From a virus: DNA of 43,000 nucleotides. The stretch spans positions 1 through 43,000 of the IMG/VR virus record IMGVR_UViG_3300045938_000052. The stretch is one strand, 5' to 3'. Positions 4,154 to 40,662 of this stretch are shown here, in pieces. Below the pieces are notes generated by a model that was not told the origin of the DNA, did not search any database, and saw only the letters and a list, made by a program, of their open reading frames with translations. Each line of letters starts with the position of its first letter. Within the stretch, counting starts at the first letter, position 1. The translations under genes were made by a program, and so were the position numbers.

Positions 4154-5394
4154 ATTTTCTTCGCCAGGCGATGCTGCGGCTGTCGCTCAAGGGTATGGAC
4201 CTGTCCCTGCAGTCGCCGCAGGGCTGGGACTTTCTCCAGGGTCGGCAGCCCAACTGGGCGAATGTGCGCGTCGACGAGAACACGCAGCTGGCAATCTCCG
4301 CAGCCTTCTCCGCCATCCGGCTCATCGCCGAGACCGTCGGGACGTTGCCGCTGCACCTCTATCGCAAGACGCCGAAGGGTCGAGAACGCGCGACGCGGGA
4401 TCCGCGGTATGCGCTGGTGCACGACCAACCGAACGAGTACATGACGGCCGTCGAGTGGAAGGAGGCGATGTGCGTGAGCCTCGCCTCCATGGGGCAGTCA
4501 TACAACTTCGTCAGCAGCATGGAATCGACGGGGCGGGTGATCAGCATCCAGCCGGTGCACAAGCATCGCGTTAGACCTGAAGTCGTTGCCGACGGCTCGG
4601 TGATTTATCACCTGACGATGCGCAATGGGCAGCCGCTGCCATTGACCCGCCGGCAGATCTGCCCCATCCGCGGGTTTGGCGGGGTGGGTGATCTCGAAGG
4701 CTACGCGCCGCACCAGCTGCACTCCAACAGCCTGGCGCTGACGGTCGCGATCGAGAAGTACGGCGCAGAGTTTTTCGGGGGCGGCAGTCGTCCGAGCGGC
4801 GTGCTGACGACGGAGCAGGAGTTCAAGAAAGACCAGCGCGACAGCATCCGCGATGGCTTCCAGAAATATGTGCGAGAGAGCTGGCTGCACGGTCGGCTGC
4901 CGCTGCTGGAAAACGGCGTGAAGTACCAGGCGGTGACGACGCCCAACAACGAGGCGCAGTTCATCGAGACCCGCAAGTTGCAGATCGCCGAGATCGCCCG
5001 GATCTATCGCGTGCCGCTGCACATGCTCATGGAGATGGACAAGGCCAGCTACGCGAACACCGAGCAGGCCAACAAGCATTTTCTCGACTACACGCTGCTG
5101 TCGTACTTGAAGCGAATCGAGGCGGGTCTGAACAGCTCGCTGCTCACCAATGCCGAAAAGGTCGACCACTACTTCCAGTTCGATGTGCGCGGACTGCTGC
5201 GCGGCGACAGCACGCAGCGCGCCGCGTACTACGTGACCATGCGCAACGCCGGCGCCATCACGCAGAACGAGATCCGCGACCTGGAAGACATGGAGCGCAT
5301 CGAGGGAGCGGACGACCTGCACGTCCCGCTCAACATGGCGCCCAGCGATCTGCTGGCCTCCATCCTCACCCACAAGCAGCAAGGGAAAGAATGA
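4150..5394 (+). CDS. Portal protein, HK97 family
   Basis: ATGA overlap with the terL stop. Conserved portal segments include ...FFGGGSRPSGVL...EAQFIETRKLQIAEIARIYRVPLHML.... Confidence 0.93.
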   Translation: MNFLRQAMLRLSLKGMDLSLQSPQGWDFLQGRQPNWANVRVDENTQLAISAAFSAIRLIAETVGTLPLHLYRKTPKGRERATRDPRYALVHDQPNEYMTAVEWKEAMCVSLASMGQSYNFVSSMESTGRVISIQPVHKHRVRPEVVADGSVIYHLTMRNGQPLPLTRRQICPIRGFGGVGDLEGYAPHQLHSNSLALTVAIEKYGAEFFGGGSRPSGVLTTEQEFKKDQRDSIRDGFQKYVRESWLHGRLPLLENGVKYQAVTTPNNEAQFIETRKLQIAEIARIYRVPLHMLMEMDKASYANTEQANKHFLDYTLLSYLKRIEAGLNSSLLTNAEKVDHYFQFDVRGLLRGDSTQRAAYYVTMRNAGAITQNEIRDLEDMERIEGADDLHVPLNMAPSDLLASILTHKQQGKE

Positions 5395-6029
5395 TGGAAC
5401 GCCTCACTGCACCGATCGAGATCAAATCCGCGGAGAAGGACGGCACCTTCACCGGCTACGCGGCCGTCTTCGGCAACATCGACCTGGGCTACGACGTGAT
5501 CGAGCCCGGCGCTTTCGTCAAGGCCAAGACGACGAAGGACGGCATGCTGCGCATCGCGATCGGCCACCGGCTCGACCAGCTGGCCGGCAAGGCGACGTTC
5601 CGCCAGGACGATCGCGGCCTGTACGTCGAGGGCAAGCTGAGCCTGGGCGTGAGCTACGTGCGCGACCAGTACGAGCTGATGAAGGACGGCGTGCTCGACG
5701 GCCTGTCCGTTGGCTTCGACATCCTGCGCGACGGCGCCGACTACGAGGAGCGCAGCGGCAAGCACGTGCGCGTCATCAAGTCCGCCGAGCTCTGGGAGTT
5801 CTCCCTGGTGCCGTTCGGCATGAACCCCGAGGCCCTGATCGACACGGTCAAGGCTGCCTCCATTCGAGATTTCGAGGCCCAGTTGCGCGGCCTCGGGTAC
5901 AGCCACACCGAAGCGAAGACCCTCGCTTCGGGTGGCTTTCGGTCGCTGGGTCCGCGGGATGCGGATTCGGACAGCGGGATGCTGGCAGACCAACTCAAAG
6001 CGCTTCGTTCATCTTTCACCTGGAACTGA
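5391..6029 (+). CDS. Prohead maturation protease, HK97 family (S78/U35)
   Basis: ATGA overlap with the portal stop. Sequence is GTFTGYAAVFGNIDLGYDVIEPGAF...GLSVGF...ELWEFSLVPFGMNPEA. Confidence 0.92.
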   Translation: MMERLTAPIEIKSAEKDGTFTGYAAVFGNIDLGYDVIEPGAFVKAKTTKDGMLRIAIGHRLDQLAGKATFRQDDRGLYVEGKLSLGVSYVRDQYELMKDGVLDGLSVGFDILRDGADYEERSGKHVRVIKSAELWEFSLVPFGMNPEALIDTVKAASIRDFEAQLRGLGYSHTEAKTLASGGFRSLGPRDADSDSGMLADQLKALRSSFTWN

Positions 6030-6034
6030 TTCAC

Positions 6035-7396
6035 ATGCATTCCCTGCTTTTCCCCACCATCCGCCGCAACCCCGTCCCGTGGGCCATCTTCGGCCTGCTC
6101 GCCGTCCTTGCGGTGCTCGCGCTGACCGGCCAGATCAGCGTTCCCTACGAACTGTTCGCGGCGTCCGTCATTCCGGCGGCGCTGCAGGAAGAGTTCACCA
6201 AGCTCAGCGACGTCGCGAAGGCAGCCAAGACCGCGATCGAAGAGGTCAAGAGCGCCCACAAGGATCTCGACGGCCGCGTCGCCAAGATCCACGACGAACT
6301 CGGTACCGGCAAGACCGATGCGGTGACCAAGTCGGCTTTCCAGTCGGCTGTCGAACGGGTCGACAAGGCCGAGAAGTCGCTCGACACGCTCAACCGCGAA
6401 GTCACCGAGCTCGCGCAGAAGGCCGCCAACCTGCTCAAGCAGCCCGACGGCCGCAAGAGCCTGGGCCAGCTGGCCAGCGAGTCGCCGGCGGCGAAGAGCT
6501 ACAAGGGCGGCAACGTCGAGCTCTGCACGATGGCCGGTCCGCTGTTCGGCAAGGCCGTCAACAGCGGCGCCACCAGCGCTGGCGCGCTGATCGAGGCCTA
6601 CCGGGTGCCCGGCATCCTGAGCGAGCCCGATCTGCCGCCGACCGTGCGTGATCTTTTCACCGCCGTCTCGATCAGCACCAACGCGATCGAGTGGGTGCAG
6701 GAGAAGCTCTTCACCAACAACGCGGGCCCGCAGAACGGCGAGGGCACCAACAAGCCGCAGTCGGACTGGACGTTCGAGAAGAAGAGCTCGGCGGTCGAGA
6801 CCATCGCCCACTGGATCCCGGTGAGCCGCCAGGTGCTGGCCGACGTGCCGCAGCTGCGTGGCCTGATCGACGGCAAGCTGCGCACCGGTCTGAAGATCAA
6901 GGAAGACCTCGCGCTGCTGTTCGGCGACGGCACCAACGGCAACCTGCTCGGCCTGGTGCCGCAAGCCACGCCGTATTCGGCGACCCGCATCCCGGCCGGC
7001 GCAACCAAGATCGATCACCTCCGCTGGGCCTTCCTGCAGGTCGCCAAGGCGCAGTACCCCGCCACCTTCGCGGTGCTGAGCCTGGAGGACTGGGCGCTGA
7101 TCCAGATGATGAAGACGACCGACGGCGCCTACATCTTCGGCACGCCGACGGACGGCGCGGCGCCGCGCATCTGGGGCAAGCGCGTGGTCGAGAGCTTCGG
7201 CATGGACACGGGCGACTTCCTCGCCGGTTCCAGCCTGGCCGCGACGATCTACGACCGCGAGGACGTGACCGTGCGTGCGTCGGAGCACCACGCCAGCTTC
7301 TTCATCCAGAACATGGTGGCGCTGCTGTGCGAAGAGCGCCTGGCGTTCACGGTCGAGCGTCCGAAGGCCATCGTCCAGGGCTCGTTCCCGGCCTAA
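6035..7396 (+). CDS. Major capsid protein, HK97 fold, with N-terminal delta (scaffold) domain
   Basis: A coiled-coil delta region is followed by ...TVRDLFTAVSISTNAIEWVQE...ETIAHWIPVSRQVLADVPQLRGLIDGKL.... The start is uncertain: ATG 6035 gives an odd hydrophobic N-terminus. Confidence 0.92.
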   Translation: MHSLLFPTIRRNPVPWAIFGLLAVLAVLALTGQISVPYELFAASVIPAALQEEFTKLSDVAKAAKTAIEEVKSAHKDLDGRVAKIHDELGTGKTDAVTKSAFQSAVERVDKAEKSLDTLNREVTELAQKAANLLKQPDGRKSLGQLASESPAAKSYKGGNVELCTMAGPLFGKAVNSGATSAGALIEAYRVPGILSEPDLPPTVRDLFTAVSISTNAIEWVQEKLFTNNAGPQNGEGTNKPQSDWTFEKKSSAVETIAHWIPVSRQVLADVPQLRGLIDGKLRTGLKIKEDLALLFGDGTNGNLLGLVPQATPYSATRIPAGATKIDHLRWAFLQVAKAQYPATFAVLSLEDWALIQMMKTTDGAYIFGTPTDGAAPRIWGKRVVESFGMDTGDFLAGSSLAATIYDREDVTVRASEHHASFFIQNMVALLCEERLAFTVERPKAIVQGSFPA

Positions 7397-7425
7397 GCCG
7401 CGACGGTCCGACAACGCCACCCGAA

Positions 7426-7459
7426 GGCCCGCACGGCTCGCCCTGCGGGCCTTTCTTCA
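7426..7459 (+). terminator. Rho-independent terminator/attenuator after the capsid gene
   Basis: Stem GGCCCGCA (7426-7433) pairs with TGCGGGCC (7444-7451), followed by TTTCTT. Confidence 0.75.
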
Positions 7460-7476
7460 TCCGAAAAGGAAATCCC

Positions 7477-7869
7477 ATGAAAGTCCTGAAACCCTTCAAC
7501 CGCGGCGGCCAGCACTACGCGCGCGGTTCCGCTGCGCCTGCCGACCTCGACAAGGCCACCATCGCGCACTACCGCCGTCACGGCATGGTTACCGCTGAAG
7601 ACGCGAAGGCCGCCGAGGGTTCGAGCACGACGTCGCCTGTCGCGCCCGCACGCAAACCTCGGCAGCCGGGCTCGTCGGAGACCAAGCCGGCCGGTCCGAC
7701 CGAGACCAAGCCGGCCGGTCCGACCGAGACCAAGCCCGCAGCGCCGGCGGGCGCCGCCGCAGGCGACGGCAGCACGTCGGGCGACCCGACGCCGACGACC
7801 ACCACCGCGGCCGGCGGCGAGGGCGGGCCCGACGCAGTGACCGGCATCACGTCCGCATCGCTCGGCTGA
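7477..7869 (+). CDS. Hypothetical protein with Pro/Thr-rich tandem-repeat tail (130 aa)
   Basis: ATG follows AAAGGAAA. The N-terminus is MKVLKPFNRGGQHYARG..., then ETKPAGPT x2.6 and a low-complexity PT/G tail. Confidence 0.7.
   Translation: MKVLKPFNRGGQHYARGSAAPADLDKATIAHYRRHGMVTAEDAKAAEGSSTTSPVAPARKPRQPGSSETKPAGPTETKPAGPTETKPAAPAGAAAGDGSTSGDPTPTTTTAAGGEGGPDAVTGITSASLG
7678..7741 (+). repeat. Perfect 24-bp tandem repeat, 2.6 units (GAGACCAAGCCGGCCGGTCCGACC)
   Basis: Units at 7678-7701 and 7702-7725 are identical. A partial third unit runs to 7741. The repeat is in-frame (ETKPAGPT). Confidence 0.9.
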
Positions 7870-7874
7870 TCACC

Positions 7875-8282
7875 ATGCAGTACTCCACCGACATCCGCGA
7901 CGCCCAGGGCGACGTCATGGAGACCGTGATCGGGCAGTCTCCGCTGCTGCGGGTCTTCAATGGTCCGACGCCGGCCAATGCGGCGGCTCCGCTCGTCTCG
8001 GGCAACAAGCTGCTGGCCCAGGCCACGCTTCCTGCCGACTACCTGACGCCCAGCTCCAATGGCGTGAAGTCCAAGCAGGGCACGTGGACGTTGGTAGGCC
8101 AGCCCGAAGCTGGTTCCGGCACCCCGGGCACCTTCTTCCGCATCTACGACGCGAGCGGCTCGATCTGCAAGGTTCAGGGCACGTTCGGCGTGGGTCAGGA
8201 GATGGTTCCTGACAACAACAGCATCGCGAACGGCCAGGTCTCCACGATCAGCGTCTTCTCGATCTCGCGAGCGAACGGCTGA
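7875..8282 (+). CDS. Hypothetical protein (135 aa), probable virion-associated
   Basis: ORF with GC-rich third positions, tightly packed in the structural operon. No recognisable motif. Confidence 0.65.
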   Translation: MQYSTDIRDAQGDVMETVIGQSPLLRVFNGPTPANAAAPLVSGNKLLAQATLPADYLTPSSNGVKSKQGTWTLVGQPEAGSGTPGTFFRIYDASGSICKVQGTFGVGQEMVPDNNSIANGQVSTISVFSISRANG

Positions 8283-8297
8283 GAAGGAGCACGGGCA

Positions 8298-8774
8298 ATG
8301 GCGCACATCCTTGAGAACCGAGTCTGCGAACTCAGCACGACCGAAGGCGTCGGCGCCTTCGCTCTCACGCCCGCCATTGCCATGCAGCGCTTCGGCGCGG
8401 TCATGGCGGTCGGCGACACGTGCTGGTACGTCGCCTCCGCGGTCAATGCGTCGACCGGCGCCCCGACCGGCGAGTACGAGTACGGAAAAGCGACGTATCT
8501 GGGCTCGAACTCGCTCGGCCGCACCGCGCCCTACGGCTCAAGCAGCGGGGGCGCGGCCGTCGCCTTCAGCGCTGGCTTGAAGCAGATCGCGATGACCATT
8601 TCCGCTCCGAGCTTTCGGACCAACGAAGACTGGTTGCGTGCCCTCGGGATCCTGACATTGCTCGAGGGCAAACAGGACGCAGGCACACCCAGCGACGCGG
8701 CCGTACTGGCCCTCCTTATGAGCGCGTCCACCTTCGCGCGGACCGAAACGCAGCAACTCAAGATCGGCGCTTAA
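8298..8774 (+). CDS. Hypothetical protein resembling N-terminal anchor domains of phage fibre/spike proteins (158 aa)
   Basis: Sequence is MAHILENRVCELSTTEGVGAFALT...GDTCWYVA...GEYEYGKATYLGSNSLGRT...SSSGGAAVAFSAGLKQI. This pattern is recalled from fibre N-termini. No search was possible. Confidence 0.6.
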   Translation: MAHILENRVCELSTTEGVGAFALTPAIAMQRFGAVMAVGDTCWYVASAVNASTGAPTGEYEYGKATYLGSNSLGRTAPYGSSSGGAAVAFSAGLKQIAMTISAPSFRTNEDWLRALGILTLLEGKQDAGTPSDAAVLALLMSASTFARTETQQLKIGA

Positions 8775-8776
8775 AA

Positions 8777-11700
8777 ATGGCTTTCGACCCGCAACTTGCC
8801 GACCTCGACCAACTGCACCAGGATTTTCTTGCTCTACAGGGCACGGTGACGTCGACCGAGGAGACCGTCAACCTCACGCTTAACCAGGTGACCAGCGCGA
8901 TCGCGCTCTGGCTGCCAATCGTGGTGAACGCCGAAGCGTTGGCCGACAGCCTCGACGATGGCAATGGCGAGGTGATTACGCCTCCGCCGGATCCGACGGT
9001 CACGGGCTACGTGATCGAGGGCGACAGCATCGATGCCGGCGGTGGCACGAATAGCCAGTCGTGGCCATCGCAGTTCGCCACACTCACTGGGTTCAGCGTT
9101 CGCAATGTGGCCACACAGGGCGACACGATCAACAGCATGATCAACGGGTTCGACAACCCGGGCGGCATCGGTGCGGCGTATTCGTCCGATTACGACAAGG
9201 TGATCATCGGCGGGCTCACGAACGATATTGCGCTCGACAACACACCACTCTGGCGCCTGAAAGAGCTGCTCTACGGTATTTGCCACAAGGCACAGGCCAA
9301 GGGGTTCAAGAAAATTTATCTGATGACGGTGCCGCCACGGGTGGTGGGCACCTCGATCTGGAATCAGGAAAAGGAAGATCGGCGAATCGCGCTGAATGCG
9401 TCGATGCTCACCGAATTCACGTCCTACGGCGCCGATGGTGTGATCGATCGGACCGCTGGGTTCACGACGGCCGATCTTTTCGATGGCGTGCATCCGACCA
9501 ACGCGGGTGCGTTCAAGATTGCACAAGCGGTGAAGGCGGCCCTGACTCAGACGCAACAGCCGGGCACTATTACGCCAAAGGGCGTCGTCTTTGAAGGTGA
9601 CAGCATCACTGCCGGTACGAGCGGCAATACGGATCCATACCCGGCGCAGTGGTCGCGCCTGACCGGCATCTCGTCGTCCAACATCGCCTACCCGGGTGAC
9701 CAGATTCGCTCGTTACTCAACAATTTCGACTCGCAGGCCGGGCCGAAATTCAACGCCCAGACGTGCGACATCTACATGTTCAATGGCGGGTCGAACGACA
9801 TCAGTGACAACAGCGCCGACAAGAACAGCATCGTCGATGTTATTCAACTGATCATCGATAAGGCGCATACCGCGGGCTTCAAGGTCATTCTCTCGACCAT
9901 TCTGCCGCGTGGTTTCAATGCGGCGAACGAAGCCATTCGGACATCGGTGAACCAATGGATTCGCACGAACTGGCGGAACGTCGCCGAAGGTCTCGTCGAC
10001 TTCGCCGCGGCCATCACCGACACGAGCGGTATGCCTGACGGGGTGCATCCGAGCAATGCAACGGCGGCCATCATGGCGGCCGAGGTGGCGAAAACCTTGG
10101 TTGCTTCGGTCACAGCGGGCGATGTGGTCAACAGCGACGGCTCGCTCAACGAAGCGAACTTCCTTGCCATCGCCAACAACTACTGGCAAGCGTTCGACTA
10201 TCGCTTCGGTGCAGCACCGACCAAGCCCACCGGTGTGCCCACGTACACCGAGCCGGTCAGCCGGTATATGCCTGACGGTTCGCTCACGCCTCCGACTGGA
10301 GGGGACATTCGTTCCTACCAGTTCGGTAATTACCGGGCTGGCTATACCGATTTCTCTTCCAACGAAGAGCACTTCATCTGGGCTCCCGACAACCAGGTCA
10401 AGTTCACTGGTGTGACCGGCATCCAAGGTTCCAGCACTTCGCACGACTGCCATTCTTTCAAGCCTGAAAGCAACTGGGTGCGTTACCTGCGTGGCGAGAA
10501 CCAGCTCAAGGGCGTGGAGGTCGAGTACTGGCGCAATCATGGACAGCCGAATCTGTCTCGCCCCACTTGCATGGGTCGCGCGCACGGTCGCCCCGGTTGG
10601 GCTGTGCAATCTCTGGTTGGTTTCCAAGATGGTTTCATCTGCACCATCGGGGCCAACACGATGTACAACGTGGCAAGCACTCGCCTGCCCGCCGGCATGA
10701 TCCCCACGGACATCGCCATCACATCGTCTAACGAGTTCGCCATCGTGACCTACTGGAGCACGGTGGACAAGCGTGGCGGCATTGCTGTCCTAGCCCTGTG
10801 TGGTCTGGGTCAGAACATGACTCTGGACAGCCCGACGCCGAATCCGGCAAACACCAATGACGGCTGGTGGGGTGAGTGGGAGCATGTTCGTTGGGGTCTG
10901 CACAACCTCGGCAACTTCGCTGGCATCAAGTATCTCGGCAAGTACGAGATCCCCGGCATGCTGGCGCCTACGGCTGCAAGTGCAACGACTGGCTACTACC
11001 GTCGCGGTTACCTCAATGCCAATGAGCCGGAAGGCACATGCGGCAACACAGGTGACTGGCTGCAGAACGAAGCACATCGTCAGATGTGGATCACCGGTCG
11101 CTTCGCCGGACGTTGGGCCAAGCAAGGTGCTGTCGTTGTCATCTCCAAGTCGGAGAAAAAGGCTGCGATCATCAACCTTGAGCCGCTGTTCGAACAGATC
11201 ACGAAGATGTATTTCACGACTCGTGAGCGCTTCTTGGAAACAACGACCTACGGCTATGCGGACAACCAGTATCCGTATGGCTTCGAGACAGTGCCAGCGC
11301 AGAAGCCGCAGTTCGTGAAAATGTTCAACCTGGAAAGCAAGCCGACCGCTTGCCATATGTACAGCTACGGCATCATCAATGATCCGAAGCGTTGGTGCTA
11401 TGTGGCAATGGAGAACGGTTATATGCATACCATTTCAATGGGTGGATATTCCTCGTTCCCTGGGCCAAACGATCCGCCGGATGATCCTTCGCAGGTTCAA
11501 ATCATTGGGCGTACTTTCGTTGGTGCGAACCCAGTGTCAATCAACCAAGTGAAGGAAAAAGCCGGTAACAAGTACGGTTTGCTGCGTGATGAGCGGGATA
11601 CGTTGCTTGTTGCTTCTCGTGCCGAATGCGCTGTCCGTTGGATCGACTTCAATACAGCCAACGGTACTGAGATTCTGAAGCTGCAGGACAGTCGAATCAC

Positions 11701-11929
11701 CGATATCACTCATGCTGAGGATATGGATAACCACGGGACAGAAAGCTATACCGTTGGTATTTCTGACATGAGCGGTGGGTGCATCCGTCACTATGCATGG
11801 GGCGATACCTATCTCCATACAGAGGGTGGTCTCCACTACCCGCTGGTCAATGGCGAGGACTTTAACTATGGCGGTGCTTTCAGCGTGCCGGGCAAGCCAT
11901 TCAAGAACGACAGCGCCAACGTCTCTTAA
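8777..11929 (+). CDS. 1050-aa multidomain protein: N-terminal coiled-coil-like segment, two tandem SGNH/GDSL hydrolase domains, and a C-terminal ~450-aa repeat/propeller-like domain
   Basis: The ATG at 8777 lies 3 nt after the previous stop. Domain 1 has GDSIDAGGG, GGLTNDI and DGVHPT. Domain 2 has GDSITAGTSG, GGSNDI and DGVHPS. The C-terminus is paralogous to 27639-29024. Confidence 0.85.
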   Translation: MAFDPQLADLDQLHQDFLALQGTVTSTEETVNLTLNQVTSAIALWLPIVVNAEALADSLDDGNGEVITPPPDPTVTGYVIEGDSIDAGGGTNSQSWPSQFATLTGFSVRNVATQGDTINSMINGFDNPGGIGAAYSSDYDKVIIGGLTNDIALDNTPLWRLKELLYGICHKAQAKGFKKIYLMTVPPRVVGTSIWNQEKEDRRIALNASMLTEFTSYGADGVIDRTAGFTTADLFDGVHPTNAGAFKIAQAVKAALTQTQQPGTITPKGVVFEGDSITAGTSGNTDPYPAQWSRLTGISSSNIAYPGDQIRSLLNNFDSQAGPKFNAQTCDIYMFNGGSNDISDNSADKNSIVDVIQLIIDKAHTAGFKVILSTILPRGFNAANEAIRTSVNQWIRTNWRNVAEGLVDFAAAITDTSGMPDGVHPSNATAAIMAAEVAKTLVASVTAGDVVNSDGSLNEANFLAIANNYWQAFDYRFGAAPTKPTGVPTYTEPVSRYMPDGSLTPPTGGDIRSYQFGNYRAGYTDFSSNEEHFIWAPDNQVKFTGVTGIQGSSTSHDCHSFKPESNWVRYLRGENQLKGVEVEYWRNHGQPNLSRPTCMGRAHGRPGWAVQSLVGFQDGFICTIGANTMYNVASTRLPAGMIPTDIAITSSNEFAIVTYWSTVDKRGGIAVLALCGLGQNMTLDSPTPNPANTNDGWWGEWEHVRWGLHNLGNFAGIKYLGKYEIPGMLAPTAASATTGYYRRGYLNANEPEGTCGNTGDWLQNEAHRQMWITGRFAGRWAKQGAVVVISKSEKKAAIINLEPLFEQITKMYFTTRERFLETTTYGYADNQYPYGFETVPAQKPQFVKMFNLESKPTACHMYSYGIINDPKRWCYVAMENGYMHTISMGGYSSFPGPNDPPDDPSQVQIIGRTFVGANPVSINQVKEKAGNKYGLLRDERDTLLVASRAECAVRWIDFNTANGTEILKLQDSRITDITHAEDMDNHGTESYTVGISDMSGGCIRHYAWGDTYLHTEGGLHYPLVNGEDFNYGGAFSVPGKPFKNDSANVS

Positions 11930-11947
11930 CCAAAACCGGATCAAAAC

Positions 11948-12871
11948 ATGAGCCAAGAGCAACTCGTACAAGCGGCCGCCCAACTGGCCAAGGATCTGCG
12001 CGACACGCGTGACGCGTATGGCGCGCGCGCCGCGGCCGTGATTGCCAGCACGTCGCAATTCCCCGCCAAGCTGGCGGAGTTCTCCAGCTTGCTCACGCGA
12101 TACGAGAATGCGCGCGATCGGATCGAGTCGGCAATGAGTGGTTCGAATCCCGGCACGGGCACCATGCTGGCTTATCTCGATTTCAGCGAGGCTGCCGATC
12201 GTGAGCGTCCGGATAATTGGATCAACAAGGTGCCGACCGGGGGCATCTATCGCAATTACGGGTCCGGCAAAGTGGCCGGCGGTCGAGGTGATCCTTACGG
12301 CCCCTTCCCGGGAATGTCGTGCATGACGGAAAGCGCGACGAATGGAAATATCGCCATTTACGGCGAGGACATCTATTCAATTCCAGATGTCGTGACATTC
12401 GAAAATGCTTTTCGTGCGGGCAACGGTGAGGGCAATATTCTGTCTTTCAGCGACATGGGTGCAATCGAAGGCGATACCTACTTTAGCGTCTACAAAATTG
12501 CGCAAGAGAATCCGGGGAAACGCCGTTTTCGTCTGACTGCAAAGGCTTTCGGCCTGTTCGATGACTTCATTACCGACGAAGTCGACGCATTGATGATGAA
12601 CGGCGAGAGCTGCTACTGGCCGAAAATGCGGCGCGAGGCAGACAACCGCTTTTCGTTGCGTGTGAACGGCAAATACCTCGGCGCCACAGACGTTCAATTC
12701 CCGGGCGTATTGCAGGGGCGGTTCGGTGCATGGGGTCTTTTCCAGCAGGATGGCTTTGGCGTCGACGGCAGCTTCCGCTGCGGCCTGGGCCTGGCCATCT
12801 GCGACAAGCGTTTGGAGAACCTCGGCACCGGCGACTATGCCGTTCCGACCGTTCGTCCCGCCTATCCCTGA
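11948..12871 (+). CDS. Hypothetical protein (307 aa) with helical N-terminus
   Basis: Clean ORF in the lower-GC block. The N-terminus MSQEQLVQAAAQLAKDLRDTRDAYG... is helical. There is no catalytic motif. Confidence 0.7.
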   Translation: MSQEQLVQAAAQLAKDLRDTRDAYGARAAAVIASTSQFPAKLAEFSSLLTRYENARDRIESAMSGSNPGTGTMLAYLDFSEAADRERPDNWINKVPTGGIYRNYGSGKVAGGRGDPYGPFPGMSCMTESATNGNIAIYGEDIYSIPDVVTFENAFRAGNGEGNILSFSDMGAIEGDTYFSVYKIAQENPGKRRFRLTAKAFGLFDDFITDEVDALMMNGESCYWPKMRREADNRFSLRVNGKYLGATDVQFPGVLQGRFGAWGLFQQDGFGVDGSFRCGLGLAICDKRLENLGTGDYAVPTVRPAYP

Positions 12872-12928
12872 TTCGATTGCTGCCGGACCCATCCCTTGAA
12901 CGCCGCTGCTCGCAATTAAGGTTCCACC

Positions 12929-13417
12929 ATGTTTGCAACGACTCCATTCAGCGCGACGGCATTCGGCAGCGAGGGGGACAGTCTTCAGCCGGATACAGGG
13001 TGGAGGCTCACCATCGTCGATGCGCCCGACGTCGTCGTGGCCGCCGTGCTGGTTCGGAACACGCTGGCGCTCTCCGTTCTCGATGCGGCCGACCAAGTCA
13101 GCGCATCCATGGTCGCCGGTGTCGCGCCGATCGACATCACGCTCGCAGTCCAGGACGAGCCGGACACGCTGCAGTCCGCGTTCGCCGCCCCTGCCGGCCT
13201 GACCCTGGCGCTGAGCGTCGCAGACGCGCCTGACACGCTGCTCGCTGCGGTAGAGCGCGCCGGAATGGCCACGGTTGCGCTGGTCGTGCGGGACGCACCC
13301 GACACGGTCCAGGGGGCCAGCATCGGGGGACGCCTGATCTTCGGCGCGATCCCGCGGTGCCGGCCCGCGCATGCCGGGTCACGCTGCCGGCCGCCCAACA
13401 TTCAACACAGGTGCTGA
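12929..13417 (+). CDS. Hypothetical repeat protein with five D-A/E-P-D turns (162 aa)
   Basis: ATG follows AAGG. GC3 is high in this frame. The motifs are VDAPDVV, LDAADQV, QDEPDTL, ADAPDTL and RDAPDTV, spaced about 20-25 aa apart. Confidence 0.6.
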   Translation: MFATTPFSATAFGSEGDSLQPDTGWRLTIVDAPDVVVAAVLVRNTLALSVLDAADQVSASMVAGVAPIDITLAVQDEPDTLQSAFAAPAGLTLALSVADAPDTLLAAVERAGMATVALVVRDAPDTVQGASIGGRLIFGAIPRCRPAHAGSRCRPPNIQHRC

Positions 13418-13419
13418 AC

Positions 13420-14007
13420 ATGGCTTTCAAGGTCGTCGAGCGCCCAACTGCCGAGCCGATCACGCTCGAGGAGTTGCGCGCCCATCTGCGCCTGGATGCG
13501 AACGGCGAGGTGCCGTCGCATCCGGACGACGCGCTGGTGCTGGGCTATCTCAGCGCCGCCCGCGAGCACGCGGAGCTCTACGTCGGCTTCGCACTCGCGC
13601 CGCAAACGCTCGAGCTTGCGTTGGACGAATTTCCATGCGACGGCGACGCCCTCGAGCTGGAGGGCGGAGAGGTTTCCTCGGTCGCCTCGGTCGTCTACGT
13701 CAGCGGCGCCGGCGAGCTCGTGGCGCTCGATCCGACGAAGTACGTGCTCGATCCATATTCCACGCCTGCATGGCTGCTGCCGGCCTACGGCTCGGCATCG
13801 TGGCCGGAAACCCTGCCGGTGGCCAACGCGGTTCGGGTCCGCTACTCGGTAGGCGCGCAGCCGCTGTCGCCGTCCATCCGCGCAGCGCTGCTGCTATTGG
13901 TGGGCCACCTGTACGAGAACCGCGAGGAGACGTCCGCCGTGCAGACATATGCACTGTCGAAGGGCGTCAATTCGCTGCTGCGCCTCCACCGGCGCATGGG
14001 GGTCTGA
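13420..14007 (+). CDS. Head-tail connector protein (gp6-like)
   Basis: Sequence is MAFKVVERPTAEPITLEELRAHLRLD...ALVLGYLSAAREHAELYVG...LLLLVGHLYENREE, a typical gp6-like signature. Confidence 0.85.
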   Translation: MAFKVVERPTAEPITLEELRAHLRLDANGEVPSHPDDALVLGYLSAAREHAELYVGFALAPQTLELALDEFPCDGDALELEGGEVSSVASVVYVSGAGELVALDPTKYVLDPYSTPAWLLPAYGSASWPETLPVANAVRVRYSVGAQPLSPSIRAALLLLVGHLYENREETSAVQTYALSKGVNSLLRLHRRMGV

Positions 14008-14333
14008 TGCGCGCAGGAACCCTCCGTCACCGCGTCACGGTCGAGCAGCCCGTCCGCGGGCGGGATGCGGCGGGTCAGCCTCTGACGGACTGGAAGCGGG
14101 TCGCAGAACTGTGGGCGGACCTGCTGCACAAGAACGGCGCCGAGACGATCCGAGCCGATCAGGACGCCTCCACCGTGCAGGCCAGCATCCGGATCCGATA
14201 TCGCACCGATCTCGACGCTTCGATGCGGGTGGTGCACGGCACCAAGATCTACCGCATCACGGCCGTCCTGCCGGACGAACGAGCTCGGCAGTACGTCGAC
14301 CTAGTGTGCGAGGTGAGTGGCAATGGCCGGTAA
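14007..14333 (+). CDS. Head-tail adaptor / head closure protein (SPP1 gp16-like)
   Basis: The ATG shares its A with the last base of the upstream TGA stop (1-nt overlap at 14007). Sequence is MRAGTLRHRVTVEQP...DWKRVAELWADL...IRIRYRTDL...YRITAV. Confidence 0.85.
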   Translation: MRAGTLRHRVTVEQPVRGRDAAGQPLTDWKRVAELWADLLHKNGAETIRADQDASTVQASIRIRYRTDLDASMRVVHGTKIYRITAVLPDERARQYVDLVCEVSGNGR

Positions 14334-15182: not shown

Positions 15183-15217
15183 CCAGTTTTCCGGCCCGTC
15201 AGGGCATTCAGCAACCG

Positions 15218-15239
15218 GCCGCCCATGCGGCTTTTTTTT
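15218..15239 (+). terminator. Weak rho-independent terminator (5-bp stem plus T8)
   Basis: Stem GCCGC/GCGGC with loop CCAT, followed by TTTTTTTT (15232-15239). Confidence 0.5.
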
Positions 15240-15261
15240 CGTCCACGAAGGGTCTTCCACC

Positions 15262-25667: not shown

Positions 25668-25877
25668 ATGGCAGCCACGACGACGACGTGTCGCGTCTAC
25701 CGGAACAACGTCGAGATCTTCCGGGTTCAATTCCAAGGGGCGACTGAGGTCTCGTGGACTCCTCCCGATGAACAGCCGGCAAACTATCGGTTTGAGTATT
25801 CCGCGGACGGCGCGTCCCCGGAAGTTCCGGGACAAATTGCGCGTCGCTATGCGGGCCTGGTGGGGCATCGGCGATGA
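25668..25877 (+). CDS. Small hypothetical protein (69 aa)
   Basis: The ATG lies 3 nt after the J stop, and the 3' end overlaps the next gene by ATGA. This packing suggests translational coupling. Confidence 0.55.
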   Translation: MAATTTTCRVYRNNVEIFRVQFQGATEVSWTPPDEQPANYRFEYSADGASPEVPGQIARRYAGLVGHRR

Positions 25878-26476
25878 AATTTGCAACGCTCTATGACGCG
25901 ACGACGGGCGTTATCGCTTGCACGACATCGATCCAGTTGCCGCTCGGTGTTGATGCGGATTCGGCAACTGCCGAGCAGTGGGCCGCAGCCATCGCCGATC
26001 TTGAGCAGGCGGCCGGCATGCCCTGCGTGCTCGGCGAGCCGAAGCCGAATCAGCGTGTGCATGCCGGTGTGTTTGTCGACGTCGTCCCGGAGCTCCCGTC
26101 GCTCGAGGACGCGAAGCTCGCGAAGTGGGAGCTGCTGAAGGCCGAACGCGATCGCCGCGAAACGCTGGGCTTCACGTACATGGGCAAGCTCCTGCAGAGC
26201 GATGAGCGAAGCGTGCTCAGGATCAACACTCGGGCGCAGGCTGCGCGCGATGCACTGGGCGCCGGCGATGAGTACCAGACGTACTGGAAGGCTACCGACA
26301 ACTCGCTCCTCCTCCTGGACGCACAGCAGATGGCTGACATGCCGCGCGCCCTGTCCGACTATGCGAACGGCCTGCACGTCCTTGCCGAAGGGCTTCGCCA
26401 GCAACTGCTCAGCCCGGCCACGAGCACTCTTGAGATGGTCGCTGCTGTGCAGTGGCCACCGACAAACCCCCAGTAA
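25874..26476 (+). CDS. Tail fibre assembly/chaperone-like protein (DUF4376-like)
   Basis: Sequence is ...LEDAKLAKWELLKAERDRRE...YQTYWKATDNSLLLLDAQQM...LRQQLLSPATSTLEMVAAVQWP. Confidence 0.7.
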   Translation: MKFATLYDATTGVIACTTSIQLPLGVDADSATAEQWAAAIADLEQAAGMPCVLGEPKPNQRVHAGVFVDVVPELPSLEDAKLAKWELLKAERDRRETLGFTYMGKLLQSDERSVLRINTRAQAARDALGAGDEYQTYWKATDNSLLLLDAQQMADMPRALSDYANGLHVLAEGLRQQLLSPATSTLEMVAAVQWPPTNPQ

Positions 26477-26494
26477 GAAAAGTTCACCCAACCA

Positions 26495-26517
26495 ACCCGC
26501 TTCGGCGGGTTTTTTTA
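26495..26517 (+). terminator. Strong rho-independent terminator after the tail genes
   Basis: Stem ACCCGC/GCGGGT with a TTCG tetraloop, followed by T7. Confidence 0.85.
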
Positions 26518-26534
26518 TGTCCGAAGGAACCACC

Positions 26535-29027
26535 ATGCTCCGACTGAAAACACTTCTCCCGCTCGCCGCGCTTCTGAGCGCTGCGGCGATCGCAGCGCCG
26601 CCGGCGGTGAAGCCCGCTGGCGGGCTTATCGCCGTCGCCTTCGCCAAGTCCACCCACTTCACACTCACCGCGTCGACAACGGTGAGCTATGGCAACGGTG
26701 AGGTCTGGACACAGAAAGATCTGGGAAAGGGCATTTACCGCTGTGGCCCTGACACGTTCGGCCTTGCCTCGTCGGTAGCGACGGGCGGCGAGCAGTGTCG
26801 CTACACCCGCAAGGGCGGCGGTCTGGTCGTCGTCGCGCCGCCGGTCGTCGTGCCCACGCCAGCACCAGCGTTGGTGAAGATCGCGGCAGAGTTCGCCTCG
26901 TTCAACCTGTCCGCGCCGACGATCGTCACCTACGGCCTGAACGGCAAGACCGTGGGCAAGGCGCTGCCGGCCGGCACGCATACCTGCGGCAACGAGACGT
27001 TCGGCAGCGATCCGCTGCCCACCGTCGCGAAGGAGTGCACGGCGCCGGCGACCGCCACTGAGGTTTCACCCAGCAAGCCGGCCGACCCCGTCGTCGTCGC
27101 GCCGGCGCCGTCGACCGGCGCCTCAATCCGCGAGCCCAGCGAGTACCGGCGCGTTGCCGCCCTCATGGGGACGCAGGCAGGCATGGACTATCTCTACGGC
27201 CAGGCGTCGTCGAAGGTGCTCACGAACCTCTACCCAAGCGTGCCGGCCAGCAAGCCGATGAACATGGTCTCGATCCAGAACCCGAACGGGCTGGGGAACC
27301 GCGGCTGCTCCTGGACGGGCTGGTGCGGCACGTCCCAGTTCGGCGAGCTGGAGTACGCCTCCGGCGACTACAGCTCCTCGGTCGCCAACTTCGGCTACAT
27401 CCCGTTTGCCGTCCCGGACCGGACGATCTTCAAAGCCAACCGCTACTGGGGGATCGGTGCGATCCAGCAGATCTCGGTGGCCCACAGCACGTTCTCGGTC
27501 GTGCCGGAGCCGTCCTGGACCGTCTACGAGGGCGAGACGCGCAACAACGCGCACAACGAAGAGCAGCTCATGCGCCAGATCGAGGGCACGGCGGCGCCGG
27601 GCACCAATGGCAAAGACATCTTCGAAGGCAAGCCCGTGGCCTGCGCTCGAGGCTACGGCCGCGGCGGCTGGATCAACAACGTGCTGTGCGTGCAGAGCAA
27701 CGGCTCGATCACGTCGCATGGTTCAAACACCTCGCGCAACAACATGCTCGTGCGGCTGCCGGCCGGCGCAGGCACGCCGACGGCTATCTCCGTCACCAAC
27801 AGCGGCGAGTTCGCCTTCGTGACGACCTGGGACACGGTCGCCTTGCGCGGGAAGATCTGGACCATCGGTCTGAAGGACGCGTGCCAGGACTGCCGTCCGG
27901 AGGACGAGTCCAAGTGGACCGCGAACTGGGGTCAGTGGAACCGCGTCTACGTGGGCTTGCCGAACCTCGGCAACTACGTCGGCGGCAAGGTGCTCGGCCC
28001 GGTCGACCTGCCCGAAGACATCATCGCGCCGACGGCCATCTCGGTGACCACCGGGCGGTCCTCGGAGCGCCATGACGGCTACGAGACCGTGATGCGCCTG
28101 TGGGACGAGCCCATCGACGCCGCCTCGCAGCGCGCTCGCTACTTCGGCGGCGACTTCAAGAACGCGATCGCCAACACCGGTATGGCCGTCGTGATCTCGA
28201 AGGGCGAGAAGCGTGCAGCCTTCGTCGACCTGAAACCACTGTTCACGCAGGCACGCCAGAACTGGTTGGCCTCGATGAGCGACGACGAGTTCAAGAGCCG
28301 GGTCGCCGCCCGTGGTGATGGCGACAGCCAATTCCCGAAGGGCTTCGCGTCCCTGCCGTCGCAGAAGCCGGTCGTCATCAAGACGATGGCGTTCGAGTCG
28401 GCGCCGACGTCGCTGCGCACGATGCTGACTGCACCCTTCCGCAGCGTGATCGGCACGGAGGACGGCAACCTGCACGTCGTCGACCTGGGCGCCAACTACC
28501 TGAACCAGACCAACGCAGCAGCGGTCTCGGGCTCGCCCAGCGACATCAAGGAGCTCTCGACGTTCAACGTCGGCGGCAACCCCACCAGCATCGCGTTCGT
28601 GAAGGGCAAGTCGTCGCAGCGCCCAGACGGCCGCCGCGCGCTGTGGGGTTACGAGAAGGACGACTCGTTCCTGTGGGCGGTCTCGCGCGAGGAGAAGAAG
28701 GCGTCGATGATCCAGTGGAATGCCGACCGCACCGCCTTCTCCGGCGCGTACCTGGCAGTCCAGGACGCCCGCATCAGCGACCCGATCGTGATCGAGGACG
28801 CGGACAACCACGGCACCGAGAGCTACGTGGCCACCATCGGCAGCGGCAGCAGCCTCTTCAACGTCCTGTACGGCCCGATCATCGCCTACACCTACAAGGA
28901 CGCGAAGAAGCCGTTCTGCCAGCCGGACGCGCCCTGCGGCCCGATCACTCCGAAGTCGATCATGTTCGGTGGCGAGTTCAAGGTGCCGGGCAACGTGTTC
29001 TACGTCGGCGGCGGCAACATCAATTGA
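26535..29027 (+). CDS. 830-aa secreted (Sec signal peptide) protein; two Cys-containing N-terminal repeats plus a C-terminal domain paralogous to 8777..11929
   Basis: GAAGGAA precedes ATG 26535. The signal peptide is MLRLKTLLPLAALLSAAAIA/APP. Shared motifs with the paralog are RLPAG..P..I..T.S.EFA.VT.W, VVISK.EK.AA...L.PLF and ED.DNHGTESY. Confidence 0.85.
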   Translation: MLRLKTLLPLAALLSAAAIAAPPAVKPAGGLIAVAFAKSTHFTLTASTTVSYGNGEVWTQKDLGKGIYRCGPDTFGLASSVATGGEQCRYTRKGGGLVVVAPPVVVPTPAPALVKIAAEFASFNLSAPTIVTYGLNGKTVGKALPAGTHTCGNETFGSDPLPTVAKECTAPATATEVSPSKPADPVVVAPAPSTGASIREPSEYRRVAALMGTQAGMDYLYGQASSKVLTNLYPSVPASKPMNMVSIQNPNGLGNRGCSWTGWCGTSQFGELEYASGDYSSSVANFGYIPFAVPDRTIFKANRYWGIGAIQQISVAHSTFSVVPEPSWTVYEGETRNNAHNEEQLMRQIEGTAAPGTNGKDIFEGKPVACARGYGRGGWINNVLCVQSNGSITSHGSNTSRNNMLVRLPAGAGTPTAISVTNSGEFAFVTTWDTVALRGKIWTIGLKDACQDCRPEDESKWTANWGQWNRVYVGLPNLGNYVGGKVLGPVDLPEDIIAPTAISVTTGRSSERHDGYETVMRLWDEPIDAASQRARYFGGDFKNAIANTGMAVVISKGEKRAAFVDLKPLFTQARQNWLASMSDDEFKSRVAARGDGDSQFPKGFASLPSQKPVVIKTMAFESAPTSLRTMLTAPFRSVIGTEDGNLHVVDLGANYLNQTNAAAVSGSPSDIKELSTFNVGGNPTSIAFVKGKSSQRPDGRRALWGYEKDDSFLWAVSREEKKASMIQWNADRTAFSGAYLAVQDARISDPIVIEDADNHGTESYVATIGSGSSLFNVLYGPIIAYTYKDAKKPFCQPDAPCGPITPKSIMFGGEFKVPGNVFYVGGGNIN

Positions 29028-31365: not shown

Positions 31366-32154
31366 ATGGCCACACCCATCATCCCGTGGCTGGGCGGCAA
31401 GCGCCGCCTGGCCGACACCATCATTCCGCGCTTCCCAGCGCACACCTGCTACGTCGAGGTCTTCGCCGGCGGCGCCGCGCTGTACTTTCTCCGGCCGCCG
31501 GCGGAAGTCGAGGTCATCAACGACGTCAACGGCGACATCGTCAACCTCTACCGGGTCGTGCAGAACCACCTCGAGGAGTTCGTGCGCCAGTTCAAATGGG
31601 CGCTCTCGAGCCGCGAGATCTTCAAGTGGCTGCAGGACACGCCGCCCGAGACGCTGACCGACATCCAGCGCGCCGCGCGTTTCTTCTATCTCCAGCACCA
31701 TGCGTTCGGCGGCAAGGTGTCCGGCCAGACCTGGGGCACGGCGACGACGGCGCCGCCGGTCAACCTGCTGCGCATCGAGGAGCAGCTGAGCGCGGCCCAT
31801 CTGCGGCTGGCCACCACACAGATCGAGCGTCTCGACTGGAAGGAGTGCATGCGTCGGTACGACCGGCCGCACACGCTGTTCTATCTGGATCCGCCGTACT
31901 GGGAGACGGAGGGCTACGGCGTGCCGTTCGGGTGGGCCGAGTACGAAGCCATGGCCGCGGCACTGCGCGAGCTCAAGGGCAGGGCGATCGTCAGCCTGAA
32001 CGACCATGCAGCGATTCGGGCCTGCTTCGAGGGCTTCCACATGGAGTCGCTCGACATCACGTACCAGGTCGGTGGTGGCCACCGAGGCGCCGATCGGAAG
32101 GAGCTGCTGATCTTCAGCTGGGACGTGATCAGCGAACCCGCTGGATTGTTCTAG
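31366..32154 (+). CDS. dam: DNA N6-adenine methyltransferase, Dam/D12 class
   Basis: Motifs are WLGGKRRLA, EVFAGGAALYF (AdoMet motif) and FYLDPPYW (DPPY catalytic motif). Confidence 0.9.
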   Translation: MATPIIPWLGGKRRLADTIIPRFPAHTCYVEVFAGGAALYFLRPPAEVEVINDVNGDIVNLYRVVQNHLEEFVRQFKWALSSREIFKWLQDTPPETLTDIQRAARFFYLQHHAFGGKVSGQTWGTATTAPPVNLLRIEEQLSAAHLRLATTQIERLDWKECMRRYDRPHTLFYLDPPYWETEGYGVPFGWAEYEAMAAALRELKGRAIVSLNDHAAIRACFEGFHMESLDITYQVGGGHRGADRKELLIFSWDVISEPAGLF

Positions 32155-32471: not shown

Positions 32472-32509
32472 TGTGAAAACCTAAGGAAGTACGGCGTACG
32501 ACGCCTCTC

Positions 32510-33250: not shown

Positions 33251-33261
33251 CCGGTGCCATG

Positions 33262-40642: not shown

Positions 40643-40662
40643 CCGTGTGTTGGGATGGCGCG

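Follow-up and report, generated by a model that had tools for sequence, protein, structure and literature searches.

The question which this locus raises is what six open reading frames (ORFs), all on the + strand, are doing between the major capsid gene and the gp6-like head-tail connector gene of a siphophage. The locus lies in IMG/VR virus record IMGVR_UViG_3300045938_000052, of which positions 1 to 43,000 were analysed (43,000 nucleotides, further called the window), a lambda/HK97-like siphophage genome or prophage with about 65% of guanine plus cytosine (GC). The ORFs encode proteins of 130, 135, 158, 1050, 307 and 162 residues and precede a connector of 195 residues; all of them, marked out in an initial annotation of the same DNA, are indeed present on the + strand before the connector gene. 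According to our analysis, positions 7875-14333 may build accessory, enzyme-tipped, bead-on-rope fibres, most probably at the neck of the virion, a reading to which we give a probability of about 0.45. That the block is a virion structural fibre module, summed over the possible sites of attachment, is well supported and in our opinion very probable, because of its anchor domain, a whisker or garland fold with a homologue in phage KPP25, distal proteins of a kind found in the fibre slot, and its continuity with the structural operon.

Which genes form the unit can be seen from the close relatives. The closest isolated phage is Acidovorax phage Aval, where the capsid gene is followed by gp27 and a short connector gene; when 50,697 genomes of isolated phages were searched by nucleotide and by tblastn, the 3' end of the capsid gene alone was matched (Aval, 84%), and nothing useful was returned for the 158-, 307- and 1050-residue proteins. 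More than 16 IMG/VR contigs carry capsid proteins 62-80% identical to that of the window (6035-7396, Pfam Phage_capsid 7e-46), and those that extend past the capsid gene have the Aval-like order of capsid, hairpin, Pro/Thr protein and short connector, with the head-closure gene about 0.95 kb past the capsid gene end, the other five genes of the supposed insert being absent from them. The Pro/Thr protein of the window (130 residues, 7477..7869, +) consists of a conserved 45-residue N-terminal domain and a Pro/Thr/Ala/Gly-rich tail with three copies of ETKPAGPT and a 24-nt DNA repeat, and has no Pfam or PHROG match; its homologues lie directly 3' of the capsid gene in almost all IMG/VR relatives reaching past that gene and in Aval, where the N-terminus of gp27 is homologous to it, and judging from this distribution it belongs to the ancestral head module and not to the insert. 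The hairpin with its U-tract after the capsid gene (7423..7461, +) is found by a consensus scan too, and at 7423-7454 folds with -25.8 kcal/mol (z = -3.3 against shuffles), with UUUCUUC after it. An equivalent GC-rich hairpin stands 3' of the capsid gene in 16 out of 16 relatives examined, usually with a T-rich tract, and since relatives without the module have it too, it is an ancestral attenuator or terminator of the capsid transcript and not a boundary of the insert.

At the other end, no tblastn match to the 195-residue connector was obtained in Aval or in the 16+ close relatives, and the head-closure protein (14007..14333, +, Pfam Phage_HCP) is 68-71% identical to those of two more distant siphophage lineages, described below, versus 50% to that of Aval. 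Because the connector differs from the connectors of the close relatives, we count it as a part of the foreign block, which by these comparisons is 7875-14333, connector and head-closure gene included. The initial annotation had described a six-gene insert that begins at a terminator and ends before the connector. Its mosaic acquisition is supported; both proposed boundaries have to be moved, as Aval and at least 16 IMG/VR relatives keep the hairpin and the Pro/Thr protein, and the connector and head-closure genes travel with the mosaic unit.

Homologues of the 135-residue protein led to two other HK97-type siphophage contigs (designated L036 and L038/39), whose capsid proteins are 36-38% identical to that of the window and whose genes of the block stand in the same place and order. 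The homologue of the 135-residue protein is 70-75% identical to that of the window and the homologue of the 158-residue protein 46-48%; they are accompanied by a 702-704-residue protein whose C-terminal ~525 residues match the 1050-residue protein (29-30%, E 5e-56), another large protein with no detected identity to the window, a 166-residue homologue of the 162-residue repeat protein (36-43%) directly upstream of a long connector (195-196 residues, 59-60%), extra genes with marginal similarity, and the head-closure gene (68-71%, as above). The 307-residue protein of the window has no detectable kinship with the 596-726-residue (Laminin_G_3) proteins which take its position there. The L045 contig (IMG/VR) has a reduced module consisting of capsid, a 134-residue homologue of the 135-residue protein, proteins of 336 and 84 residues, a 506-residue repeat protein, a 183-residue connector and the head-closure protein. 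By these homologies, the module is not a one-off: at least two other lineages of the HK97 type have it, and a third has a reduced form; the phage of the window is, by the same token, a mosaic in which an Aval-like portal (4150-5394), protease (5391-6029), capsid and Pro/Thr protein are joined to a block, from the 135-residue protein to head closure, of the L036/L038 type. The comparison of synteny that had been called for has thus been made, and the block proves to be conserved across siphophage lineages with divergent capsids.

The three extra genes of L036 (8558-11468) and L038 (8976-11592) lie inside the connector/head-closure pair, a position more unusual still, and encode a protein of 132-230 residues, a separate SGNH/GDSL protein of 614-618 residues and a protein of 104-124 residues. 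That the 1050-residue enzyme was simply fused from this SGNH gene is rejected, the SGNH domains being marginally similar only.

The order of genes is not an artefact of assembly, because an identical contig from a different dataset (Logan SRR35356024), with an independent gene call, repeats the same series of 135, 158, 1050, 307, 162 and 195 residues. From the 130-residue gene to the connector the intergenic gaps are 5, 15, 2, 18, 57 and 2 nt, and gaps of 2-57 nt on one strand fit a single operon. There is no + strand promoter or terminator call inside 7875-13417, no flanking direct or inverted repeats, transfer RNA or Rfam element mark the block, and the minus-strand ORFs inside it are antisense artefacts with high GC at third codon positions (GC3), usual in GC-rich DNA.

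The first protein of the block, of 135 residues (7875..8282, +), is referred to here as the bead. It matches phrog_3758, annotated as 'virion structural protein', with E = 2.2e-17 (residues 4-134 on positions 6-139 of the 140-position profile), and its family counts 84 homologues. The AlphaFold2 (AF2) model, built from 60 homologues, has a predicted local distance difference test score (pLDDT) of 95 and shows a helix at 5-19 followed by a beta-sandwich; the N-terminal helix, small sheet and incomplete sandwich typical for the GP4 Fiber-1/Bas63 whisker fold can all be recognised in it. No PDB match was found by phmmer; the profile of the family, in turn, matches PDB chain 44nx_B (E 2.6e-6), the product of ORF006 in Pseudomonas podophage KPP25, whose annotation is that of a virion structural protein. 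In a Foldseek comparison with PDB the best match was 9rkv_A, a 139-residue chain of a tail-fibre entry of Agrobacterium phage 7-7-1 (template modelling score, TM, 0.74; E 1e-5), followed by the Bas63 connector chains 9mt4_K/L/M (TM 0.56-0.73, E 4e-4 to 6e-3), taken as the whisker protein by their size of 102-108 residues as the text of the paper maps no chain letters, and by the Sf14 neck chain 9c39_K (E 2e-3). By analogy with these systems, the 135-residue protein is predicted to dimerise and to clamp on an extended rope, to which the adjacency and co-occurrence of the bead gene with a DxPD-repeat protein lend indirect support.

In KPP25 the gene of ORF006 (L084 8992-9435) lies two genes after that of 'head closure Hc3' and just before that of a 620-residue virion protein. 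The name of PDB entry 44nx is just 'Structural protein', and no paper on the entry was found.

The next protein, of 158 residues (8298..8774, +), is modelled by AF2 with a pLDDT of 88 as an N-terminal beta-barrel (~9-99) and C-terminal helices (109-157). A word-indexed protein search was too insensitive here, giving 2 matches for this protein and 5 for the 1050-residue one, and an exhaustive HMMER search was needed; with phmmer it returned 2,452 cluster representatives. Among the matches listed, the homologous part occupies residues 1 to ~105-120 of proteins 85-800 residues long, with the consensus MAHIxxDRVLExSTTTGTGxFTLAGA, and the C-termini of many members match PHROG families of tail fibres and collar fibres. 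No PDB match was obtained by sequence, profile or Foldseek and no Pfam entry was found; the BFVD matches are N-termini of uncharacterised viral proteins, including Seuss gp35, which is encoded two genes downstream of the bead homologue of Seuss. On the grounds of these homologies the 158-residue protein is a stand-alone copy of a widespread N-terminal fibre-anchor domain with only a helical tail. Its description as a fibre anchor, made at the outset, is therefore supported, as the domain heads 2,452 representatives and many of their C-termini match PHROG tail-fibre families.

Another home of the anchor domain is an extra structural module after the lysis cassette of lambda-like genomes (L032-L035, e.g. 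L032 9555-14002), which encodes a Pfam Gp80 protein (GP4 fiber I), a 253-residue anchor-domain protein, proteins of 190, 297 and 230 residues and a DUF4376 protein.

The 1050-residue protein (8777..11929, +) would be the distal part of the fibre. It has an N-terminal helical segment (residues 1 to ~70), two SGNH esterase domains (residues ~75-260, nt 8999-9556, and residues ~266-445, nt 9572-10111) and an uncharacterised C-terminal domain of ~580 residues (nt ~10184-11926). Lipase_GDSL_2 matches it in two stretches with 79.4 bits against a cutoff of 32.9 (6e-22) and Lipase_GDSL with 51 bits against 23.6, and its family profiles and catalytic blocks both point to membership in the SGNH/GDSL superfamily. 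The first domain has GDS at 82, DGVH at 236 and, as block III, GLTND, a one-residue variant of GxND which was read from the alignment, having been missed by the regular expression; the second has GDS at 274, GSND at 338 and DGVH at 421, being the only one with a canonical block III. The two domains are 35% identical to each other, and the tandem SGNH arrangement suggested from the beginning, with GDS and DGVH in both, is right. It would be logical to suggest, by analogy with SGNH tailspikes such as G7C gp63.1, that the esterases probably deacetylate a surface polysaccharide; deacetylating tailspikes and fibres of the SGNH type include gp63.1 of E. coli phage G7C and the Vi-antigen acetylesterase tailspikes. 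As in these tailspikes, an esterase with GDS and DxxH stands behind an N-terminal attachment region on a fibre-type protein; unlike them, the protein has a tandem esterase and a ~580-residue domain, and is encoded, in a siphophage, among the genes for joining head and tail and not in the tailspike slot of a podophage.

The ~580-residue domain has no Pfam, PHROG or PDB match and is common to the homologue P0002, P0003, an 813-residue protein of a Janthinobacterium prophage (L006), the 704- and 702-residue proteins of L036 and L038, and a second protein of the window itself (26202..29027, +). The latter is similar to the 1050-residue protein by BLASTP (30% identity over 637 columns, E 1e-60) and by a hidden Markov model (2e-152), occupies the classical side-fibre slot after the gpJ-like and DUF4376 genes, has a native GC3 of 0.88 in the frame of the ORF, and truly starts downstream of 26202. 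A single virion may thus present this domain in two places or as two versions. Around this slot the DUF4376 protein (25874-26476) is followed by a protein of ~850-940 residues whose N-terminal ~330 residues match no family.

The 307-residue protein (11948..12871, +) has an N-terminal segment which looks helical by eye and a ~240-residue domain, and is without a Pfam, PHROG or PDB relative. Its sole homologue found is the 299-residue product of the Janthinobacterium gene directly after that of the SGNH protein (23% identity, E 5e-12), and we take it for a second subunit of the distal fibre or else for a factor of assembly.

This prophage, from a metagenome-assembled genome of Janthinobacterium lividum (L006), also explains the composition of the central part. 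The GC content is 0.53-0.60 over about 9000-12500 versus 0.65-0.70 in the flanks, and the GC3 is 0.71 in the 1050-residue gene and 0.69 in the 307-residue gene versus 0.81-0.92 in their neighbours; it is native, 0.81-0.87, for the 135-, 158- and 162-residue genes (0.81 in the last). The drop in GC seen at first between 9.0 and 12.9 kb is hence real by both measures. The best relative of the 1050-residue protein, out of very few, is an 855-residue protein of the prophage (38% identity); this homologue, P0002, has a single SGNH domain. The order of the cassette there is Baseplate_J, a 148-residue homologue of the anchor (45% identity to the 158-residue protein), the 855-residue SGNH protein and the 299-residue protein, and the cassette (L006 9555-13484) is likewise GC-poor, with GC3 of 0.61-0.76 versus 0.89-0.95 in its neighbours. 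Because the same GC-poor three-gene unit recurs in that prophage, we regard anchor, esterase and 307-residue genes as a mobile distal cassette, and the low-GC part of the window as a second, nested swap of this cassette only. In evolutionary terms, the distal cassette would be exchangeable and recently imported from a source of lower GC, and bead, rope and adaptor would be the resident scaffold. A third relative of the 1050-residue protein (1543 residues) lies after the lysis cassette of a lambda-like phage.

The Janthinobacterium prophage encodes two proteins with the ~580-residue domain as well: the second (L006 16151-18592, 813 residues, GC3 0.95) has the same C-terminal domain and mirrors the two copies of the window.

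The last gene before the connector (12929..13417, +) encodes the 162-residue DxPD-repeat protein, our candidate for the rope. It has an N-terminal MFxxTPFxATxF, about five hydrophobic-DxPD repeats of ~23 residues, four of them with strict [DE][AE]PD, and a Cys/Arg-rich C-terminal peptide, FGAIPRCRP.H..S..RPPN.Q.RC, which is invariant over three lineages in which the repeats have diverged. Both the DxPD repeats and the ETKPAGPT repeats of the Pro/Thr protein, noticed already on first reading of the sequence, are real. The same repeats occur mid-protein in proteins of 506-590 residues, encoded beside the connector gene in L045 and, in podophages, beside the bead gene or one small gene after it. 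The form with the Cys tail is found in three lineages only, and a search for more copies of the family in IMG/VR and GTDB genomes, together with a degenerate-DNA scan of JGI metagenomes for FGAIPRCRP, gave chance pattern matches only. In the siphophage module loci, the adaptor gene always has the gene of the repeat protein as its nearest upstream neighbour.

The adaptor, or connector (13420..14007, +), matches Phage_connect_1 (PF05135) with 37.4 bits against a cutoff of 21.2 over residues 14-61 only, phrog_40 best at residues 148-194 and phrog_442 at 3.8e-27; profile match and the Phage_HCP gene next to it identify it as an adaptor of the HK97 gp6/SPP1 gp15 type. As the Pfam match is limited to residues 14-61, the protein appears to hold an insertion of ~85 residues (~62-147). 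Its similarity to the neck-1 proteins of Milano and 7-7-1 is weak and non-significant. Cys73 in the insertion (DxFPCDG) is conserved only where the 162-residue homologue has the Cys tail (three out of three), and both are missing in L045. This co-occurrence recalls the disulfides between collar and adaptor of Bas63, and a disulfide between rope and adaptor is, judging from the residues, possible.

In distant relatives of the window (L028-L031, e.g. L030 11315-15746; capsid 34% identical) a cassette of six sugar genes separates the capsid gene from that of a 205-residue connector: NanE, NeuB, a cytidine-monophosphate-sugar cytidylyltransferase, a methyltransferase, a GT8 protein and a weak GT29-like sialyltransferase. 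This nonulosonic or sialic-acid pathway may serve glycosylation of the virion or of the host. That a long connector alone predicts the module has been rejected, as these contigs have the sugar cassette instead.

From the gene order, homologies, predicted folds, retained SGNH motifs, synteny and GC structure observed in this analysis we infer the attachment site, the pairing of bead and rope, the partners of the anchor and the substrate, and we propose the following assembly. The 162-residue protein would dock via its Cys/Arg-rich C-terminal peptide onto the outward-facing insertion of the 195-residue adaptor. Its approximately five DxPD repeats would form an extended rope onto which dimers of the 135-residue protein clamp as beads, each repeat supplying strands that complete the incomplete beta-sandwich of the bead. 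The 158-residue anchor would sit at the distal end, and its C-terminal helices would recruit the helical N-termini of the 1050- and 307-residue proteins. The SGNH domains would remove O-acetyl, or similar ester, groups from lipopolysaccharide O-antigen, capsule or exopolysaccharide, the ~580-residue C-terminal domain would bind the surface, and the outcome would be a first contact that is reversible and modifies the receptor, prior to engagement of the gpJ-type tail tip.

The scheme follows several known structures. In Bas63, dimers of the whisker protein gp5, which is made up of an N-terminal helix, a small sheet and an incomplete sandwich, encircle a rope "like beads on a string"; the rope is an extension of an immunoglobulin (Ig)-like collar mounted at the interface of adaptor and head-completion proteins. 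The whisker gene gp5 is placed between gp3, for the portal, and gp9, for the adaptor, and in the view of the authors the system is homologous to that formed in GP4 by Fiber-1, rope and fibre-tail adaptor. The collar and whiskers of the Felixounavirus myophages Bas63 and Sf14 (PDB 9mt4, 9c39) share with our locus the fold elements of the 135-residue protein and the gene position among head and neck genes before the adaptor, and an extended repeat partner that could thread the beads is encoded here too; they differ in that sequence homology is not detectable and the phage of the window is a siphophage, and, with respect to Bas63, in that the rope candidate is a separate 162-residue repeat protein and not an N-terminal extension of a collar, and in that the whiskers carry no enzyme or adhesin, whereas anchor, double esterase and large distal domain are all encoded in the block.

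In GP4 Fiber-1, the collar, which is seated on the head-tail adaptor, is connected with a distal adhesin by beads on a separate rope protein (PMC11445570, PMC12609058, PMC13243795). This Ralstonia podophage (gp80 dimers, PF23140, PDB 8JOU) has five bead dimers per rope, comparable to the approximately five repeats of the 162-residue protein, and a Pfam Gp80 protein is encoded directly upstream of the anchor homologue in L032-35; unlike our phage, it is a podophage with a 15-fold collar, its bead relating to ours at the level of fold and via Bas63 only. The neck fibres of cyanomyophage A-1(L), in which a gp5 pentadecamer holds a bead chain of gp82/81/80, belong in the same comparison, together with neck passage structures or whiskers of other phages. 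Like the assembly proposed here, they are bead chains hooked to a neck ring and assembled independently before docking; those of A-1(L) are unlike it in having trimeric beads of unrelated proteins, with genes far from the neck genes and no homology detected.

The neck is favoured for four reasons. Genes of bead, rope, adaptor and head closure are co-inherited across lineages with unrelated capsids; the gene of the rope candidate abuts that of the adaptor, and the Cys of its terminal peptide co-occurs with the adaptor Cys; podophages that have the pair of bead and rope repeat attach their fibres at the adaptor and nozzle, as podophage fibres do; and the phage already encodes a full tail-tip set. 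That the block is a virion-displayed fibre and enzyme module rather than a set of housekeeping head genes, as first suspected, is in line with its anchor domain, whisker-fold bead and fibre-slot distal domain. We may even suggest, tentatively and at less than even odds, that this is a siphophage with a podophage-style neck fibre apparatus (an outer domain on the adaptor, a rope of repeats anchored by Cys, beads of whisker fold, a universal anchor domain and a tandem-esterase adhesin) and, in addition, a tail-tip fibre sharing the distal domain.

The bead gene has many genomic homes. Apart from its place between capsid and connector in HK97-type siphophages (the window, L036-39, L045), it is found 3' of the capsid gene, being immediately adjacent to it in the podophage L083 and separated from it by one small gene in L067 and by four in L059 and L077. 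In L052, L053 and L057 it is the next gene past the portal gene, in L050 and L051 one small gene separates it from the large terminase gene before it, and in podophages of the Hydrogenophaga/Rhodoferax type (L040-42, L046, L080; also L048, L054, L082) it comes first in the tail-fibre slot, where a 545-590-residue DxPD-repeat protein follows it directly or after one small gene. It also occurs after tail-tip or minor tail genes, and with these homes begins the list of what weighs against the neck. Homologues of bead and anchor follow the central tail fibre J in Caulobacter phage Seuss, minor tail proteins in Mycobacterium phage Papyrus and its group and tail genes in Pseudanabaena phage Pan4, and parts of the distal cassette stand after Baseplate_J in a myovirus-type prophage (that of Janthinobacterium) and after the lysis cassette in lambda-like genomes; bead, anchor and cassette parts are thus used at more than one site of the virion, so gene position alone is weak evidence, and it is from the genes that the location in the virion is deduced. 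Of the single fold matches the best, 9rkv_A, belongs to the tail-fibre entry of 7-7-1 and, judged from its size, probably represents the garland protein of that phage, whose small homodimers decorate tail fibres at the baseplate. The bead has no match to Pfam PF23140 (Gp80) at E <= 10, and hhalign of its family with a member of PF23140 gives a probability of 0.5%; in view of this absence of any Gp80 sequence or profile match, the resemblance is one of fold, through Bas63. An Ig-like collar protein was not identified among the genes, long connectors exist without the module (L028-31), and the correlation of the cysteines comprises four genomes. Repeats, adjacency and analogy make the 162-residue protein a candidate for the rope, just as analogy makes surface polysaccharide a candidate substrate of the esterases.

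Some of these points speak for the main rival reading, an accessory fibre on the tail tip (on a gpJ-type hub or the distal tail), a side fibre or a garland, the genes lying in the head-tail joining region merely through mobility of the cassette; we consider this reading doubtful overall. This view would account for the anchor/SGNH/299-residue cassette directly after Baseplate_J, for the tail homes of bead and anchor, for the top fold match with garland dimers on baseplate fibres, and for the same C-terminal domain in the window's own side-fibre slot. It does not account for the synteny with long adaptor and head-closure genes, which recurs in at least two lineages and a reduced third in spite of capsids 36-38% identical, nor for a repeat gene that always adjoins the adaptor gene and whose best-conserved C-terminal peptide co-varies with the adaptor Cys; moreover, the fold of the bead is also that of the neck whisker of Bas63 and Sf14, and a complete set of gpJ, DUF4376 and fibre genes is already present downstream. 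The initial annotation had itself allowed that the genes might be ordinary baseplate fibres relocated by annotation order only. The first half of this is seen in Janthinobacterium, where the distal cassette does follow Baseplate_J; the second half fails, as the relocation is genomic and recurrent and not an artefact of annotation.

Fibres or decorations on the capsid shell itself, at pentons or hexamer centres, similar to the head spikes of RcGTA or the head fibres of phi29 and 7-7-1, are improbable. The genes do begin immediately past the capsid gene, several unrelated lineages have the bead gene next to that of the capsid or one small gene on, and the up-facing whiskers of Bas63 contact capsid decoration proteins; against this stand the lack of resemblance of any part to a known decoration fold, the identity of the bead fold and its partners as components of fibres or whiskers, and the linkage, which is tightest to the adaptor gene and persists with the same module in L036/L038, where the capsid lineage is different. 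Least probable of all is a non-structural cargo, or moron, whose SGNH enzyme and partners modify the host envelope for superinfection exclusion or release and stay out of the virion, a role proposed earlier as an alternative and suggested by the label 'lipase; moron, auxiliary metabolic gene' of the closest PHROG of the SGNH part, by the GC-poor 1050- and 307-residue genes and by the sugar genes (NanE, NeuB, sugar synthetase, methyltransferase and glycosyltransferases) at the same capsid-connector junction of a distant relative, since the marks of such cargo (own promoter and terminator, opposite strand, no structural homologues) are missing, the genes being on the same strand and translationally coupled to structural ones, the enzyme fused to a helical N-terminus and a domain of fibre-slot proteins, and preceded by a fibre-anchor protein and by a fold with a homologue in KPP25 that bears the annotation of virion structural protein.

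Neck whiskers and bead-on-rope fibres are already known from GP4, Bas63, Sf14 and A-1(L), as are fibres with SGNH deacetylases, the collar, rope and whisker assemblies having been first resolved in 2023-2025 in one podophage and two myophages. What would be new is a version for siphophages with its genes next to that of the adaptor, a rope candidate that is a separate protein of repeats with a Cys-rich peptide for anchoring, its coupling to an exchangeable tip of anchor and tandem esterase, and proposed roles for three unannotated families. This locus and its relatives suggest that siphophages of Comamonadaceae-type hosts encode an equivalent system by the adaptor gene, with an exchangeable tip. 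The three families without Pfam or PDB annotation, all large or recurrent, are the anchor domain, with its more than 2,400 cluster representatives, the repeat of the DxPD rope and the distal domain of ~580 residues; if our reading is true, the ~23-residue DxPD repeat is the first sequence signature for bead-on-rope fibres in genomes, and the virion has two organs of adsorption, separate in space and directed at one surface polymer. For annotation and prediction of host range this would mean that receptor-binding proteins have to be sought beyond the region downstream of the tape-measure gene.

The remaining genes follow the usual plan. The large terminase gene lies upstream of the portal gene; downstream of the connector come head-closure, gp10-like and tail-completion genes, the major tail protein, tail assembly chaperones and the tape measure, then a gene in the gpM position, a DUF1833 gene and that of a 1726-residue gpJ-like protein. 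A second terminator-like hairpin with a T8 tract (15217-15240) stands between the tail-completion and major tail protein genes. The capsid ORF opens (6035-6180) with a hydrophobic segment of ~45 residues (MHSLLFPTIRRNPVPWAIFGLLAVLAVLALTG...); some relatives align from residue 4-9, others, Aval among them, only from ~50, so that the true start may lie elsewhere or the protein may have an unusual N-terminal extension of the delta region. Two more strong dips in GC content are found at 32000-33500 (0.48-0.52) and 40500-41500 (0.56). The former is flanked by the genes of a DNA methyltransferase (31366-32154, phrog_56) and an integrase (33447-34400), holds a minus-strand ORF of 338 residues (32510-33526) without a Pfam match, and is probably a moron or attachment-site region.

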